From IMG/VR virus record IMGVR_UViG_2531839368_000014: 4,169 bases of DNA; one strand, written 5' to 3'. The notes beneath the pieces are model-generated. The model was not told the origin of the DNA, ran no database searches, and saw only the letters and a program-made list of their open reading frames with translations. The first letter of the stretch is position 1. Each line of letters opens with the position of its first letter. The DNA is from a virus. Its lineage: Duplodnaviria; Heunggongvirae; Uroviricota; Caudoviricetes. The position numbers and the translations under genes are program-made. This document shows, piece by piece, positions 1-4,169 of the stretch.

Positions 1-33
1 GCTTCCATCGGAAACGATGATCTGGCAGCCTGA
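1..33 (+). CDS. transposase orfB, C-terminal fragment (5' partial, continues left of the window)
   Basis: Open frame from the window edge to TGA at 31..33, translating ASIGNDDLAA; it lies just inside the IS right inverted repeat. Too short to judge independently of the IS context. Confidence 0.5.
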   Translation, partial: ASIGNDDLAA

Positions 34-75
34 GTTCACAGATAAAACACTCTCCAGGAAACCCGGGGCGGTTCA
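1..75 (+). mobile_element. 3' end of an IS3-family insertion sequence (IS629/IS1203-like by recollection); right inverted repeat about 41..75 ending in ...GGTTCA
   Basis: Seen in sequence: the reverse complement of 41..75 (TGAACCGCCCCGGGTTTCCTGGAGAG...) matches 4096..4121 (TGAACCGCCCCGGAAATCCTGGAGAC...) at 22 of the first 26 positions, with TG...CA termini typical of IS3-family inverted repeats. Frame 1 of 1..33 reads ASIGNDDLAA-stop, consistent with a transposase C-terminus. The IS629-like assignment is from memory and not verified. Confidence 0.75.
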
Positions 76-439
76 CTTTCGCATGGTGCTTAAACCGTGG
101 CGCGAGAGACGCAGTCTTTCCCAGAATGCACTCAGCCACATGTGGTACAGCGAAATCAGTGAATACCTCATCAGCAGGGGGAAATCGTTCGCTACTTCAG
201 CATGGGTAAAAGATGCTCTCAAACACACATACCTCGGTTATGAAACCAAGGACCTGGTTGATGTCGTAACCGGCGAAATCACTACTATCCAGTCGTTACG
301 CCATACCTCCGATCTTGGTACCGGAGAGATGTATGTCTTCCTGTGTAAGGTTGAAGCCTGGGCGATGAATATTGGCTGCCACCTGACTATTCCACAGAGC
401 TGCGAGTTCCAGCTGCTGCGTGACAAGCAGGAGGCGTAA
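17..439 (+). CDS. NinB/YbcN-family phage protein, apparently 5'-disrupted; the first ~20 codons (17..75) are IS-derived and the first prophage-derived in-frame ATG is at 83
   Basis: The ORF runs 17..439 with stop TAA 437..439 overlapping the ninE ATG (TAATG). It sits immediately upstream of ninE, as ybcN/ninB does in DLP12-like and lambda-like nin regions. A motif RERRSLSQN resembles my recollection of lambda NinB (RNRSLDQN). The IS boundary at 75 falls inside the ORF. Family call is from synteny plus a remembered motif. Confidence 0.5.
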   Translation: MIWQPEFTDKTLSRKPGAVHFRMVLKPWRERRSLSQNALSHMWYSEISEYLISRGKSFATSAWVKDALKHTYLGYETKDLVDVVTGEITTIQSLRHTSDLGTGEMYVFLCKVEAWAMNIGCHLTIPQSCEFQLLRDKQEA

Positions 440-609
440 TGGCTACACCGCTTATTCGTGTCATGAACGGACACATCTACAAAGTACCAAATCGTCGTAA
501 GCGTAAACCTGAGCTGAAGCCATCCGAAATACCAACACTGCTCGGATATACCGCCAGCCTGGTTGATAAAAAATGGTTGCGACTGGCAGCAAGGAGGAAT
601 CATGGCTGA
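439..609 (+). CDS. ninE: NinE-family protein (56 aa)
   Basis: ATG 439 preceded by AGGAGG at 429..434; stop TGA 607..609. Translation [56 protein letters not shown]; length and the basic C-terminal WLR..ARR pattern fit NinE as I recall it. Missing from the ORF track only because it is short. Confidence 0.75.
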   Translation: MATPLIRVMNGHIYKVPNRRKRKPELKPSEIPTLLGYTASLVDKKWLRLAARRNHG

Positions 610-892
610 TTTGAGAAAAGCAGCGCGTAGTCGGGAATGCCAAGTAAGAATCCCTGGCGTATGTAATGGCAACCCTGAAACGTCTGTACTGGCACATATC
701 CGGCTGACTGGATTGTGCGGCACCGGTACCAAACCGCCAGACTTGATTGCCACCATTGCATGTTCTGCCTGCCACGACGAAATCGACCGCCGCACACATT
801 TTGTCGATGCTGCATATGCAAAAGAATGCGCGCTGGAAGGTATGGCGAGAACACAGGTTATCTGGCTGAAAGAGGGGGTTATTAAGGCGTGA
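602..892 (+). CDS. ybcO: YbcO-like DUF1364 protein (putative Cys-rich metal-binding nuclease, 96 aa)
   Basis: ATG 602 preceded by AAGGAGG at 591..597; overlaps the ninE stop by 8 nt. Translation from 602 ([23 protein letters not shown]...CSACHDEID...) matches my recollection of E. coli YbcO almost residue for residue. The track ORF starting at 563 is a 5' extension with no ribosome-binding site. Confidence 0.85.
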
Positions 893-1251
893 ATACCTAC
901 AGCATCACATTACCCTGGCCTCCGAGCAATAATCGCTACTACCGGCATAATCGCGGGCGCACGCACATCAGCGCAGAAGGGCAGGCATACCGTGATAACG
1001 TCGCCCGAATCATCAAAGGCTCCATGCTGGATATCGGCCTGGCTATGCCAGTGAAAATCCGTATTGAGTGCCACATGCCGGATCGCCGTCGCCGTGACCT
1101 GGATAATCTGCAAAAAGCCGCTTTTGACGCACTCACCAAAGCAGGTTTCTGGCTGGATGATGCTCAGGTCGTTGATTACCGTGTTGTGAAGATGCCCGTT
1201 ACCAAAGGTGGGAAGCTGGAGCTGACCATCACCGAACTGGGGAATGAATGA
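889..1251 (+). CDS. rusA: RusA Holliday-junction resolvase (120 aa), GTG start
   Basis: Translation [26 protein letters not shown]...[19 protein letters not shown]...ELGNE is near-identical to E. coli RusA as I recall it. Start GTG 889..891 overlaps the ybcO stop (GTGA); G-rich stretch AGAGGGGG upstream at 871..878. Confidence 0.9.
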
Positions 1252-1388
1252 TGTTTGAGTCTTATATGGCAGAACGTCTTCGCCACCGCTGGATGCGCCT
1301 GCGCTTATATCGTTTTCCTGGTTCTGTTTTGACCGATTACCGGATACTGAAGAATTACGCCAAAACACTGAAAGGAGCTGCCGCATGA
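1248..1388 (+). CDS. ylcG: YlcG-like small protein (46 aa)
   Basis: Tandem ATG at 1248 and 1251 overlapping the rusA stop; stop TGA 1386..1388 overlaps the next ATG. Translation [46 protein letters not shown] resembles DLP12 YlcG and occupies the same slot between rusA and the Q-position gene. Start could be 1251. Confidence 0.65.
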
Positions 1389-2074
1389 ATACCCAATATT
1401 TACAGTATGTCCGCGAGCAACTCATTGTGGCTACCGCTGATTTGAGCGGAGCAACGAAAGGACAGCTTGAAGCCTGGCTGGAGCATGCACAATTTGATAC
1501 TGGTACATACAAACGAAAGAAGCCGCGCATTCTGGATGAGGTAACTGGCAGGATGATTACGCTGGATAATCCGCCGATTTCCGGTAAGCAGTCGTACGCA
1601 AAAGGTTCATCCATTGCACTGGTCAGCCAGGTTGAGTTCTCAACCTCGTCATGGCGCCGCGCGGTTCTGTCTCTCGAAGAACATCAGAAAGCGTGGTTGC
1701 TGTGGAGTTACAGCGAAAGTGTTCGCTGGGAACATCAGGTCACCATAACGCAGTGGGCATGGAGCGAGTTTAAGACTCTGTTGGGTACCAGGAAAATTGC
1801 AGGTAAGACACTGGAACGTTTGAAGAAGTTGATCTGGCTGGCGGCACAGGATGTGAAGAACGAGCTGGCAGGGCGTAAGACCTATGAATACCAGGAGCTG
1901 GCATCACTGGTGGGAGTGACATCAAAAAACTGGTCTGAGACATTTACTGAACGCTGGGTTGCAATGAAACACATTTTTCTACAGCTTGATAGCCAAGCTT
2001 TATTGCTTTTAACGAAAACACGTTCAAAACAAAAGACCACATTTTCACAGCAAGATATTGCAAAACTGGATTAA
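1385..2074 (+). CDS. putative late-gene antiterminator in the Q position (229 aa), not lambda-Q type
   Basis: Last gene of the nin-region chain, followed by a promoter/terminator intergenic region and then the lysis cassette, the canonical Q position. AGGAG at 1373..1377 seven nt upstream of ATG 1385. The protein has no cysteine, so it cannot carry a lambda-Q-like zinc ribbon; a helix-turn-helix-like stretch lies near residues 170-190 (YQELASLVGVTSKNWSETF). Assignment is positional. Confidence 0.5.
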   Translation: MNTQYLQYVREQLIVATADLSGATKGQLEAWLEHAQFDTGTYKRKKPRILDEVTGRMITLDNPPISGKQSYAKGSSIALVSQVEFSTSSWRRAVLSLEEHQKAWLLWSYSESVRWEHQVTITQWAWSEFKTLLGTRKIAGKTLERLKKLIWLAAQDVKNELAGRKTYEYQELASLVGVTSKNWSETFTERWVAMKHIFLQLDSQALLLLTKTRSKQKTTFSQQDIAKLD

Positions 2075-2086
2075 AAATCATATATT
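2058..2086 (+). promoter_or_regulatory. candidate sigma70 late promoter (PR'-like): TTGCAA - 17 nt - TATATT
   Basis: -35 TTGCAA at 2058..2063 and -10 TATATT at 2081..2086 with 17-nt spacing, straddling the Q stop codon (2072..2074), where PR' and the qut site lie in lambdoid phages. Hexamer match only; no expression data. Confidence 0.35.
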
Positions 2087-2142
2087 TTATGTAAATCTGA
2101 TATTTTGCCAATGTTGTACGCACTGGCAGTAATCCAAATTCA

Positions 2143-2176
2143 AGCCCGAGGTTTAAAGCCTTGGGCTTTTCTGTTT
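2143..2176 (+). terminator. intrinsic terminator-like hairpin (9-bp stem, 7-nt loop) followed by a T-rich tract
   Basis: AGCCCGAGG (2143..2151) pairs with CCTTGGGCT (2159..2167) with one G-U pair, loop TTTAAAG, then TTTTCTGTTTCT. Lies roughly 50 nt downstream of the candidate promoter. Confidence 0.45.
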
Positions 2177-2255
2177 CTGAACGGTGAGTAGCCTTCCAAC
2201 CTACCCCAGCCAGGGGGTCTTCAGCTGTTGAGTTGATATTGCTTAGCCCTCTGTT

Positions 2256-2278
2256 GCCAGCTACATGCTGGCTTTTTT
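2256..2278 (+). terminator. intrinsic terminator (tR'-like): GCCAGC-TACAT-GCTGGC followed by TTTTTT
   Basis: Perfect 6-bp GC-rich stem (2256..2261 with 2267..2272), 5-nt loop, then six T at 2273..2278. Located between the Q-position gene and the holin, as tR' is in lambda. Confidence 0.6.
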
Positions 2279-2395
2279 ATTCCAGGCTTGTGGGGAGCAT
2301 CAACTCCGTGCTTTGTCGTTAAATTACCCCGTGAGCCTGATTTCTGACATTTAACGTCCCGGCCTTTTGTCGGCGGCGAAACATTGGCTATTCAT

Positions 2396-2701
2396 ATGCA
2401 CGAAAAAGAGAGCCTTGCCGGAGCGTTCTGGCTCGTTTTGCTGATCATCGCAGGTTGGGGCGGTCTGGTCCGCTACCTGATAGATGTGAAGCAGAGTAAA
2501 GCAACGTGGAGTTGGATAAATGCTCTGGCTCAAATAGTGGTATCAGGATTCACCGGTGTTATTGGTGGCCTGATCAGCATCGAAAGTGGATTCAGTATTT
2601 ACATGATTCTCGCGACAGCGGGGATTAGTGGTGCGATGGGTTCGGTTGCACTGACGTACTTCTGGGAACGACTGACAGGGGTGAAAAATGCAAAATCTTA
2701 A
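2396..2701 (+). CDS. putative holin (three predicted transmembrane segments, about 101 aa), not lambda S-like
   Basis: Small hydrophobic protein with three hydrophobic stretches (AFWLVLLIIAGWGGLV; INALAQIVVSGFTGVIGGLISI; IYMILATAGISGAMGSVAL) and a short charged C-terminus, directly upstream of the endolysin and overlapping it by 14 nt. First ATG is at 2396; the track start at 2384 is an in-frame TTG four codons upstream. Sequence is unrelated to lambda S as I recall it. Confidence 0.6.
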   Translation: MHEKESLAGAFWLVLLIIAGWGGLVRYLIDVKQSKATWSWINALAQIVVSGFTGVIGGLISIESGFSIYMILATAGISGAMGSVALTYFWERLTGVKNAKS

Positions 2702-3164
2702 TCCTCAGCGTAAAGCCTTCCTCGATATGTTGGCGTGGTCAGAAGGAACGGATAACGGGCGACAACCGACACGTAACCACGGTTATGATGTTATTGTTGG
2801 CGGCGAACTGTTTACTGATTACTCCGATCACCCTCGCAAACTTGTCACGCTACACCCCAAACTCAAATCAACAGCCGCCGGACGTTATCAGCTTCTTTCA
2901 CGCTGGTGGGATGCTTACCGTAAACAGCTTGGTTTGAAAGACTTCTCCCCCAAAAGCCAGGACGCAGTGGCATTGCAGCAGATTAAAGAGCGTGGTGCTT
3001 TACCTATGATTGATCGCGGTGATATCCGTCAGGCAATCGACCGTTGCAGTAATATCTGGGCTTCACTGCCGGGCGCTGGTTATGGTCAGTTCGAGCATAA
3101 GGCTGACAGCCTGATTGCAAAATTCAAAGAAGCTGGCGGAACGGTCAGAGAGAGTGAGGTATGA
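2688..3164 (+). CDS. R: lambda R-type endolysin (lytic transglycosylase, 158 aa)
   Basis: Translation [20 protein letters not shown]...[20 protein letters not shown]...[27 protein letters not shown]... is near-identical to lambda R as I recall it, including Glu19 in the AWSEG motif. AGGGG at 2676..2680 upstream of ATG 2688; stop TGA overlaps the Rz ATG. Confidence 0.92.
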
Positions 3165-3622
3165 GCAGAATAACCGCGATTATCTCCGCTCTGCTCATCT
3201 GCATCATCGTCTGCCTGTCATGGGCTGTTAATCATTACCGTGATAACGCCATTACCTACAAAGCCCAGCGCGACAAAAATGCCAGAGAACTGAAGCTGGC
3301 GAACGTGGCAATTACTGACATGCAGATGCGTCAGCGTGATGTTGCTGCGCTCGATGCAAAATACACGAAGGAGTTAGCTGATGCGAAAGCTGAAAATGAT
3401 GCTCTGCATGATGATGTTGCCGCTGGTCGTCGTCGGTTGCACATCAAAGCAGTCTGTCAGTCAGTGCGTGAAGCCACCACCGCCTCCGGCGTGGATAATG
3501 CAGCCTCCCCCCGACTGGCAGACACCGCTGAACGGGATTATTTCACCCTCAGAGAGAGGCTGATCACTATGCAAAAACAACTGGAAGGAACCCAGAAGTA
3601 TATTAATGAGCAGTGCAGATAG
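3161..3622 (+). CDS. Rz: Rz spanin, inner-membrane subunit (i-spanin, 153 aa)
   Basis: N-terminal transmembrane segment ([20 protein letters not shown]) followed by a charged coiled-coil-like periplasmic domain; near-identical to lambda Rz from memory. ATGA overlap with R. Confidence 0.9.
3381..3563 (+). CDS. Rz1: Rz1 spanin, outer-membrane lipoprotein subunit (o-spanin, 60 aa), embedded in the +1 frame of Rz
   Basis: Lies wholly inside Rz in a different frame. AAGGAG at 3368..3373 seven nt upstream of ATG 3381. Signal peptide with lipobox (LVVVGC), then the proline-rich run [15 protein letters not shown]; matches lambda Rz1 from memory. Confidence 0.85.
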
Positions 3623-3647
3623 AGCTGCCCATATCGATGGGCAGCTC
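3622..3647. terminator. perfect 11-bp inverted repeat (GAGCTGCCCAT-ATCG-ATGGGCAGCTC) between convergent Rz and bor; candidate bidirectional terminator
   Basis: Perfect palindrome sitting exactly between the Rz stop (3620..3622) and the bor stop (3654..3656 on the minus strand). Flanking T/A tracts are weak, so terminator function is an inference. Confidence 0.4.
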
Positions 3648-3653
3648 ATGCAA

Positions 3654-3947
3654 TTATTGTGAGCAATACACACGCGCTTCCAGCGGAGTATAAATGCCTA
3701 AAGTAATAAAACCGAGCAATCCATTTACGAATGTTTGCTGGGTTTCTGTTTTAACAACATTTTCTGCGCCGCCACAAATTTTAGCTGCATCGACAGTTTT
3801 CTTCTGCCCAATTCCAGAGACGAAGAAATGGTGGGTGATGGTTTCCTTTGGTGTTACTGCTGCCGGTTTGTTTTGAACAGTAAACGTCTGTTGGGCACAT
3901 CCTGTAATAAGCAGGGCCAGCGCAGTAGCGAGTAGCATTTTTTTCAT
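3654..3947 (-). CDS. bor: Bor outer-membrane lipoprotein (lysogenic-conversion, serum-resistance family, 97 aa)
   Basis: Minus-strand ORF translating MKKMLLATALALLITGCAQQTFTVQNKPAA...; lipobox LITGC; near-identical to lambda Bor from memory; convergent with Rz as in lambda. Confidence 0.9.
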   Translation of the reverse strand: MKKMLLATALALLITGCAQQTFTVQNKPAAVTPKETITHHFFVSGIGQKKTVDAAKICGGAENVVKTETQQTFVNGLLGFITLGIYTPLEARVYCSQ

Positions 3948-4095
3948 GGTGTTATTCCCGATGCTTTTTAAAGTTCGCAGAATCGTATGTGTAGAAAATT
4001 AAACAAACCCTAAACAATGAGTTGAAATCTCATATTGTTAATATTTATTAATGTATGTCAGATGCGAAGGATCGTCACTGTATTCCCGGATTAAC

Positions 4096-4169
4096 TGAAC
4101 CGCCCCGGAAATCCTGGAGACTAAACTCCCTGAGAAAGAGGTAAACAGGATGACTAAAAATACTCGTTT
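4096..4169 (+). mobile_element. 5' end of an IS3-family insertion sequence (IS629/IS1203-like by recollection); left inverted repeat about 4096..4121, element continues right of the window
   Basis: TGAACCGCCCCGGAAATCCTGGAGAC at 4096 is the inverted counterpart of the repeat at 41..75. It is followed by AGAGG at 4137..4141 and ATG 4150 opening MTKNTR..., which I recall as the N-terminus of IS629-type orfA. Confidence 0.75.
4150..4169 (+). CDS. transposase orfA, N-terminal fragment (3' partial)
   Basis: ATG 4150 with a ribosome-binding site 8 nt upstream; open to the window edge (MTKNTRF...). Only 6-7 codons are visible. Confidence 0.5.

Follow-up and report, generated by a model that had tools for sequence, protein, structure and literature searches.

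The 4,169-nt stretch of Escherichia coli O157:H7 DNA analysed here (the window) begins and ends with termini of an insertion sequence (IS) and holds lambdoid phage genes in between. Did these genes arrive as a unit carried between two IS copies, or was a resident prophage hit twice by the same element? Our data make it very probable that in strain EC4436 and its sibling assembly one IS629/IS1203 subtype inserted twice, independently and each time as a simple insertion in + orientation, into a defective lambdoid prophage adjacent to icd. The pair of IS629 copies flanking this 4-kb prophage piece is real, but it is an ordinary strain-specific polymorphism.

The window is the entire scaffold JH694520.1 of draft assembly GCA_000267285.2, from strain EC4436, and the sibling assembly GCA_000267265.2 contains this contig less 10 nt on either side. 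In both assemblies, contigs end 64-75 nt inside the IS at every junction. A multicopy IS would be impassable to the assembler, which probably accounts for the contig stopping 74-75 nt into the IS on both sides, and the window would represent the unique DNA lying between two IS629/IS1203 copies. This is a hazard for annotation, as a contig with IS termini at both ends is what short-read assembly yields around any stretch of unique sequence lying between copies of a multicopy IS.

IS629/IS1203 termini at both edges of the window

Two stretches of the window belong to the IS:

1..75, + strand: right end of IS629/IS1203 (left-hand copy), equal to positions 11256-11330 of strain 28RC1, the end of a 1310-bp annotated IS
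4096..4169, + strand: left end of IS629/IS1203 (right-hand copy), equal to positions 10021-10094 of strain 28RC1

The reference element (28RC1 10021-11330; 1310 bp) is annotated as 'IS3-like element IS1203 family transposase', and in relatives the joined transposase CDS of the IS bears the annotation 'programmed frameshift'. Window positions 1-75 are the last 75 nt of this element and positions 4096-4169 its first 74 nt, both at 100% identity. The left-hand copy contributes the last codons of the transposase gene orfB, with the stop codon at 31-33, and a terminal inverted repeat at about 51-75; the right-hand copy contributes its own inverted repeat (about 4096-4120) together with the first seven codons of orfA (4150-4169), whose ATG lies at 4150-4152. 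From the positions of the orfB stop and the orfA start, both ends therefore read in the + direction.

The window contains the 13-mer TGAACCGCCCCGG at two places only, 63-75 (- strand) and 4096-4108 (+ strand); 200 shuffled sequences had no match to it. A repeat search recovered the same termini as inverted arms of 28 nt (51-78 and 4093-4120), 86% complementary. The left and right inverted repeats, TGAACCGCCCCGGAAATCCTGGAGA and TGAACCGCCCCGGGTTTCCTGGAGA, are imperfect, start with TG and have 22 of 25 positions in common. Four bases, at IS positions 14, 69, 1245 and 1297, distinguish the subtype from a variant of 95.6% identity; the first two fall in the right-hand copy and the last two in the left-hand copy, and both ends carry the bases of the same subtype.

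A previous, sequence-only reading had proposed ends of two copies of the same IS3-family element, at 75 and 4096, both in + orientation and separated by 4020 bp (76..4095). Mapping onto the 1310-bp element bears this out, with exact boundaries at 75/76 and 4095/4096, and the four subtype bases, all of them in agreement, place both ends in the same IS629/IS1203 subtype. Neither different IS types nor an inverted orientation was found, as judged from the mapping of the ends and from the subtype bases.

Genes and signals between the IS copies

The following features were recognized in or across the 4020-bp interval:

77..439, + strand: ybcN' (NinB/Orf family), first 31 codons absent; PF05772 (NinB) at E 1.3e-4, just under the cut-off; 100% match to the O157 YbcN gene
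17-439, + strand: ORF fusing the IS end to ybcN, annotated WP_050547108.1
439..609, + strand: ninE; PF05322; RefSeq 'NinE family protein'
602..892, + strand: ybcO (DUF1364, putative nuclease); PF07102, E 1.6e-41
889..1251, + strand: rusA, Holliday-junction resolvase; PF05866, E 1.9e-21; RefSeq rusA
1248..1388, + strand: ylcG; PF26818 (precomputed); RefSeq 'YlcG family protein'
1385..2074, + strand: late antiterminator Q; PF06323, E 1.4e-94
2058..2280, + strand: putative late regulatory region, from a consensus scan and a sub-threshold Rfam match
2058-2086, + strand: pR'-like promoter, consensus scan
2090-2169, + strand: short isrJ-like leader; RF01393 sub-threshold, 30.4 bits, E 0.008
2142-2168 and 2256-2272, + strand: candidate terminators, each followed by a T run, consensus scan
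2396..2701, + strand: holin; PF16083, E 7.5e-22
2688..3164, + strand: lambda R-type endolysin (lytic transglycosylase); PDB 1AM7, E 2e-100
3161..3622, + strand: Rz spanin; PF03245, E 5e-53
3381-3563, + strand: Rz1, embedded in Rz; ORF with lipobox LVVVGC
3654..3947, - strand: bor, serum-resistance lipoprotein; PF06291, E 1e-30

The endolysin gave no Pfam match at 1e-3; in the window as a whole no tRNA was found and no Rfam family scored above its gathering threshold. The order NinB-like, NinE, YbcO, RusA, Q, holin, endolysin, Rz/Rz1 and Bor is that of the lambdoid nin and late genes. Pfam, the PDB match and RefSeq thus agree with the gene content first read from the sequence (a nin remnant, rusA, a gene in the Q position, a lysis cassette and bor). 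The fusion ORF at 17-439 is already in RefSeq as a 'YbcN family protein'.

In O157:H7 genomes the inner 4020 bp are found at 100% identity and in native gene order, as the ybcN'-ninE-ybcO-rusA-ylcG-Q-holin-R-Rz/Rz1-bor block of a defective prophage that adjoins icd. According to the RefSeq annotation, this prophage runs from int through xis to a truncated O and has no immunity region. It is therefore already defective without the IS copies, so the crippling by IS-linked loss of lysis genes that had been suggested for it adds little. The block has the same genes in the same order as the DLP12-type module (ybcN ninE ybcO rusA ylcG Q S R Rz bor ybcV), and R, Rz and Bor are lambda-like; the prophage in the window differs in adjoining icd, in its Q of PF06323 type and in its holin of PF16083 type.

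In E. coli K-12, insertion of IS2 or IS10 upstream activates the quiescent rusA (PMC1636454). EC4436 likewise has an IS upstream of rusA, but the consensus scan detected no promoter leading out of the left IS629 across the junction into ybcN'. By analogy with K-12, it is only a possibility that the + oriented copy in ybcN might drive ninE-ybcO-rusA.

Two independent insertions

Each IS copy is accompanied by its own target-site duplication:

76..78, no strand: CTT duplication of the left copy, from the junction on the neighbouring scaffold; intact ybcN has CTT once
4093..4095, no strand: AAC duplication of the right copy; AAC-IS-AAC in 28RC1, one AAC at empty sites

For the left copy, the decisive sequence comes from the neighbouring 804-bp scaffold JH694519.1, which ends in GGCAAATGCTT followed directly by TGAACCGCC, the junction reading GCTT/TGAACC. 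This identifies the left copy as a simple insertion after nucleotide 95 of ybcN, accompanied by a 3-bp duplication; the check for a duplication at the left outer boundary proposed earlier thus found CTT on both sides, the outer side coming from a scaffold of the same assembly. Both assemblies have the reciprocal junction, in which ybcN 1-95 runs into the IS left end with CTT, on the adjacent scaffold, and in both the scaffolds bearing the two halves of the insertion have consecutive numbers. Moreover, a 3-bp duplication predicts a 47-aa product running from YbcN codons 1-31 into the IS left end, and this exact protein is on record for two contigs only, both named for E. coli EC4436; the product that a 4-bp duplication would give was not found in the same search. 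The draft status of the assembly leaves room for later recombination between IS copies, which may have moved or inverted DNA between the two scaffolds.

This insertion was seen only in EC4436 and one sibling assembly. Among 5,426 complete E. coli genomes, the inner junction (IS right end plus ybcN from nucleotide 93) had no one-piece match, its six partial matches being ISs at other positions, and the outer junction (ybcN 1-95 plus IS left end) was likewise absent. The fusion ORF was recorded on only two contigs of the collection searched, both from this locus. The window holds the last 75 nt of the left copy, which is probably full length (about 1310 bp); contigs of two assemblies break off within the IS, which points to a long repeat at this position.

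The right copy lies in the bor-ybcV spacer. Two relatives have empty sites there that read GGATTAACTATG, with a single AAC. The inner junction of EC4436 is base for base that of a full-length 1310-bp copy with the duplication AAC; among complete genomes, 25 have this inner junction and 26 the outer one, and the copy measured 1310 bp in all five complete relatives in which its length was determined. The duplication at the right outer boundary is thus confirmed in relatives, with AAC on both sides, from which we infer the outer side in EC4436. There, the junction is expected to read GGGGCGGTTCA followed by AACTATGTCCGCAGCC, and the copy starting at 4096 to lead into AACTATGTCC and then ybcV.

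These data are consistent with an older insertion in the bor-ybcV spacer, with duplication AAC, that would be common to a sub-lineage, and a recent, strain-specific one after ybcN nucleotide 95, with duplication CTT. Both duplications are of 3 bp, within the 3-4 bp expected for the IS629/IS1203 family.

Three other explanations were considered. One or both ends could be solo IS remnants, or the scaffolds could have lost their adjacency through IS629 recombination elsewhere. The interiors of both copies lie outside the window, about 20 copies of IS629 are present in O157 genomes (PMC3271280; PMC9943667), and the order of draft scaffolds is no proof of adjacency. Nevertheless, stopping 64-75 nt into the IS in two assemblies is how an assembler behaves at a long multicopy repeat, the scaffolds are consecutively numbered in both, and the right copy is full length in every relative measured, with its outer junction present in complete genomes; we regard this explanation as very unlikely.

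The structure could also reflect a single IS, through a collapsed repeat, a chimeric join, or an arrangement of segment plus IS as a circle or in tandem. Complete genomes do map the whole window as 4020 + 1310 = 5330 bp, with positions 1-75 falling on the end of the right-hand IS, and the left junction is in none of them. Both junctions are present, however, in two separate assemblies, and the reciprocal ybcN 1-95/IS junction with its matching CTT is what a simple insertion predicts and a circle or chimera does not, which makes an artefact of this kind highly improbable.

The weakest explanation is transposition of rusA, Q, the lysis genes and bor as one unit, in a composite (compound) transposon. 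It would fit a passenger flanked by two direct copies of one IS, but it is extremely improbable and, as the origin of the structure, refuted: the passenger sits in its native prophage context, continuing ybcN on the left and reaching the bor-ybcV spacer; relatives with a single IS have the same right junction; in the collection searched, the IS-end/ybcN fusion is confined to the two contigs of this locus; and the outer ends have no duplication in common (CTT on the left, AAC on the right), the pairs being CTT/CTT and AAC/AAC. Separate duplications for the two copies mean that the segment and its flanking ISs were not brought in together as a composite transposon.

Loss of the Q-lysis-bor block

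One published account attributes inactivated genes and deletions to IS629 and describes its excision as promoted by IEE (PMC9943667); the same article and a preprint (bioRxiv 10.1101/2023.06.07.543989) report that IEE promotes excision together with deletions adjoining the IS. With two independent insertions in direct orientation, the ybcN'-bor block of EC4436 would be liable to loss, either by homologous recombination between the IS copies or by deletion linked to transposase or IEE. A circle excised in this way would lack a replication origin and would not persist, and nothing supports the mobilisation of rusA or bor that had also been envisaged.

The deletion foreseen by the sequence-only reading holds by analogy. 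In the complete genomes of strains 08-3918 and 272, ninE-bor is gone and a single IS629-type copy lies exactly at the joint; IS-associated loss of this block is thus a real event. The predicted product itself, with 76-4095 lost and one IS left, is absent from the 5,426 complete E. coli genomes; in the EC4436 window itself nothing has been deleted yet. Both natural deletions begin at the ninE site (window position 448) and not at 75/76, and in one of them the IS is inverted. Strain 3-5-1, the only genome with both parental IS copies, has them inverted relative to each other. Given the different left site and the inverted copies, the natural deletions do not document homologous recombination between direct repeats. 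A search for the 08-3918 intermediate, with a + oriented IS at the ninE site and ninE-bor retained, matched only 08-3918 itself. Microhomology between the shared 13-bp IS termini was rejected as a general explanation: it could fit the joint of 08-3918 but not that of 272, where the flank starts with CTATG and not AACTATG. The two deletions are evidence that IS-linked events do remove the Q-lysis-bor block from this cryptic prophage.

IS629 polymorphism in O157 prophages

IS629 sites differ among O157 strains, and 62% of them are in prophages (PMC3271280). Polymorphism of IS629 and the deletions linked to it are already well documented for O157 prophages, and presence or absence of IS629 at defined sites is already used for O157:H7 subtyping. 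The locus described here matches the polymorphisms of IS-printing in its element, its duplications of 3-4 bp, its prophage site and its strain-specific presence or absence (PMC3271280), and is of little importance beyond strain typing. The ybcN insertion differs from the known polymorphisms in being absent from all 5,426 complete genomes, and offers an extra typing marker private to EC4436 and its sibling.

Other strains carry IS629 copies within the same few kb, in ybcK, upstream of ybcN, at ybcN 331-333 and in ninE. The deletions of 08-3918 and 272 end precisely at an IS terminus. One may speculate that the ybcK-ybcV stretch is a hot spot in which IS629 returns to the same targets of a few bp (ACAC in ninE; AAC/CTA between bor and ybcV), and in which at least two independent Q-lysis-bor losses reflect a transposase- or IEE-driven, or selected, 'disarming' of the lysis cassette, with EC4436 as a caught intermediate; we consider this doubtful. 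The loss of the same ninE-bor block in 08-3918 and 272 parallels the IS629-associated deletions and IEE excision known in O157, and fits the published picture of small structural polymorphism driven by IS629.

Flanking Elements and the Block Between Them

The arrangement found in Escherichia coli EC4436, a DLP12-type nin-Q-lysis-bor module lying between two IS ends, is real, and our analysis supports the first structural reading. It is one more case of the IS629 polymorphism long used for typing O157:H7, and as such an ordinary finding of a known kind. NCBI scaffold JH694520.1 (4169 bp, assembly GCA_000267285.2) matches the window exactly, and JH694143.1 from a second assembly (GCA_000267265.2) is the same contig with 10 nt fewer at both ends and two N-gaps. 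The strain name is the one under which NCBI lists a protein of the adjacent scaffold. Many O157:H7 chromosomes match the inner 4020 bp at 100% identity, and in 748 of 5,426 complete genomes coverage of the window reaches 80% or more.

The window has two copies of the 13-mer TGAACCGCCCCGG, at 63-75 (-) and 4096-4108 (+), against none in 200 shuffles, and a repeat search returned inverted arms at 51-78 and 4093-4120 (28 nt, 86% complementary). Strain 28RC1 (locus L001) carries at 10021-11330 an element of 1310 bp with the annotation [quoted passage not shown]; its first 74 nt correspond to window 4096-4169 and its last 75 nt to window 1-75. With the orfB stop at 31-33 of the window and the orfA ATG at 4150, the window begins with the right end of an IS and finishes with the left end of one, both in + orientation, as the sequence-only reading had proposed. 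A 95.6%-identical variant differs at IS positions 14, 69, 1245 and 1297, all within the parts held by the window. Both window ends have the bases of one and the same subtype at all four, which bears out that the same element, IS629/IS1203, stands at both edges.

Genes were identified by Pfam unless stated otherwise:

77-439, +, ybcN without its first 31 codons (PF05772 NinB, E 1.3e-4, just below cut-off)
439-609, +, ninE (PF05322)
602-892, +, ybcO (PF07102, E 1.6e-41)
889-1251, +, rusA (PF05866, E 1.9e-21)
1248-1388, +, ylcG (PF26818, precomputed)
1385-2074, +, Q (PF06323, E 1.4e-94)
2058-2086, +, promoter-like site, pR'-like, after Q
2142-2168 and 2256-2272, +, two strong terminator-like hairpins after Q
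2396-2701, +, holin (PF16083, E 7.5e-22)
2688-3164, +, R endolysin, lambda R-type (PDB 1AM7, E 2e-100)
3161-3622, +, Rz (PF03245, E 5e-53), with Rz1 inside at 3381-3563
3654-3947, -, bor (PF06291, E 1e-30)

The R endolysin (2688-3164, +) had zero Pfam matches at E 1e-3, which is a gap in profile coverage and not a feature of the sequence.

Two Independent Insertions

The window spans 5330 bp in complete genomes, that is, 4020 + 1310. Most matching complete genomes have a single IS beside the block, usually the copy right of bor; BLAST then puts the window's other IS end onto that copy. Because a single IS thus absorbs both window ends, each junction was searched for on its own. On the right, the inner junction (bor side plus IS left end) had a one-piece match in 25 complete genomes, and the outer one (IS right end plus AACTATG, ybcV) was present in 26, so that the bor-ybcV copy is common to a sub-lineage. 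At this site relatives carry the full 1310-bp IS as AAC-IS-AAC, and genomes without it have the empty site GGATTAACTATG.

The left junction (IS right end plus ybcN nucleotide 93) was found in 0 of the 5,426 complete genomes. Its partner was sought by predicting the protein made when YbcN codons 1-31 run on into the left end of the IS, 47 aa long with a 3-bp duplication and 32 aa with a 4-bp one. Only two E. coli EC4436 entries, EIP48246.1 and EIP62062.1, match the 47-aa fusion exactly. They lie on contigs JH694519.1 (804 bp) and JH694142.1 (784 bp), each numbered immediately ahead of the window contig in its own assembly; the 32-aa fusion had no match in the protein look-up. With a slash marking the junction, JH694519.1 ends ...GGCAAATGCTT/TGAACCGCCCCGGAAATCC..., the window starts ...GGGGCGGTTCA/CTTTCGCATGG and uninterrupted ybcN reads GGCAAATGCTTTCGCATGG. 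These junction sequences indicate a simple insertion of the left copy in + orientation with a 3-bp duplication, CTT. The 140-aa IS-end/ybcN fusion ORF occurs on only two contigs across the whole gene-position collection; no strain or assembly other than EC4436 and one sibling assembly has the ybcN copy.

The expected 3-4 bp duplications are therefore present, CTT at the left copy and AAC at the right, the latter seen in relatives. Both copies are probably full-length. The right one measures 1310 bp in relatives, and the sequence recovered from EC4436 covers the two ends of the left copy and the inner junction of the right. The block lies in its native context and the two copies are flanked by different matched duplications, one pair each, which makes the insertions independent events. 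A composite transposon arriving as a unit is ruled out on the same grounds.

Contig JH694519.1 begins within ybcK without an IS end (1-75 match L001 from 5274 onward), and its counterpart in the second assembly begins 10 nt further in, the same trimming as at the IS junctions. Probably a different repeat boundary lies here, perhaps a ybcK paralogue in another prophage.

Loss of the ninE-bor Block

For EC4436, whose copies are direct, RecA-dependent recombination would be the obvious deletion route, as for direct repeats in general; the excised circle would have no replication origin. Nothing was found here in support of the suggestion that rusA and bor are mobilised. The exact predicted deletion product (ybcN 1-95, one IS, then ybcV) was found in 0 of 5,426 complete genomes.

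Strain 08-3918, found by comparing the right-hand junction counts (25 versus 26), reads ybcN...GGCTACAC/IS(+)/AACTATG...ybcV: it lacks window 449-4095 (ninE to bor) and keeps one + copy (its locus L009, 2791-4100). Strain 272 reads ...GGCTACAC/variant IS(-)/CTATG...ybcV, with the same block gone (L012, 3310-4619). Its IS, inverted and of the 95.6% variant, has exactly the sequence of the one in ninE of strain 3-5-1, which holds both copies, inverted, with an intact block between them (L002, 6374-7683 and 11335-12644). All three strains share the left end point at window 448 (ACAC). Since 08-3918 and 272 lack the block and have one IS at the joint, IS-linked loss of Q, lysis genes and bor does occur, and the proposed deletion has this support by analogy.

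The joint of 272 is 2 nt off the AAC site and the known parental copies are inverted. Intramolecular transposition that re-uses target sites, or else IEE-type events, fit 08-3918 and 272 better than plain repeat recombination. Deletions have been reported for IS629, as has promotion by IEE of its excision with adjacent deletions (PMC9943667; bioRxiv 10.1101/2023.06.07.543989).

IS629 Sites in the Region and the Host Prophage

Across strains, at least six distinct IS629 sites fall within ~5 kb (L001 about 4946-10021, ybcK to the bor-ybcV spacer):

ybcK, duplication GAAT, +, strain F7386
upstream of ybcN, duplication CGT, +, strain 1613
ybcN nucleotides 93-95, duplication CTT, +, EC4436
ybcN, window 331-333, duplication GTA, +, strain FDAARGOS_293
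ninE, window 445-448, duplication ACAC, inverted, variant subtype, strain 3-5-1
bor-ybcV, duplication AAC, +

Five further genomes show the same 6386-bp, three-piece match as F7386 and may share its ybcK copy. This looks like a regional preference of IS629 for the stretch, and several sites near the block agree with the high variability reported for IS629 sites, 62% of them in prophages or prophage-like elements (PMC3271280).

The prophage adjoins icd. Its left arm runs int, xis, a replication gene without its N-terminus, P, ren, emrE and ybcK, and the immunity and early regions are absent; the prophage is already defective.

The left insertion removed the first 31 ybcN codons. ORF 17-439 (+) has its ATG within the IS right end, out of frame with the transposase, and runs into truncated ybcN; its RefSeq entry, WP_050547108.1 ("YbcN family protein"), is an insertion artefact annotated as a gene. 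A consensus scan found no promoter reading out of the left IS across the junction. In K-12, silent rusA is switched on by IS2 or IS10 inserted upstream (PMC1636454); here IS629 is now upstream of rusA, where activation is at most a possibility.

A late promoter and terminators after Q are the usual arrangement on which Q acts. Window 2090-2169 (+) has a sub-threshold Rfam match to isrJ (RF01393, E 0.008, 30.4 bits where the gathering score is 37), a Salmonella Hfq-binding sRNA, placed exactly between the pR'-like promoter and the first terminator. It is probably the short promoter-proximal late transcript modified by Q, which suggests that isrJ is a transcript of this kind from a Salmonella prophage.
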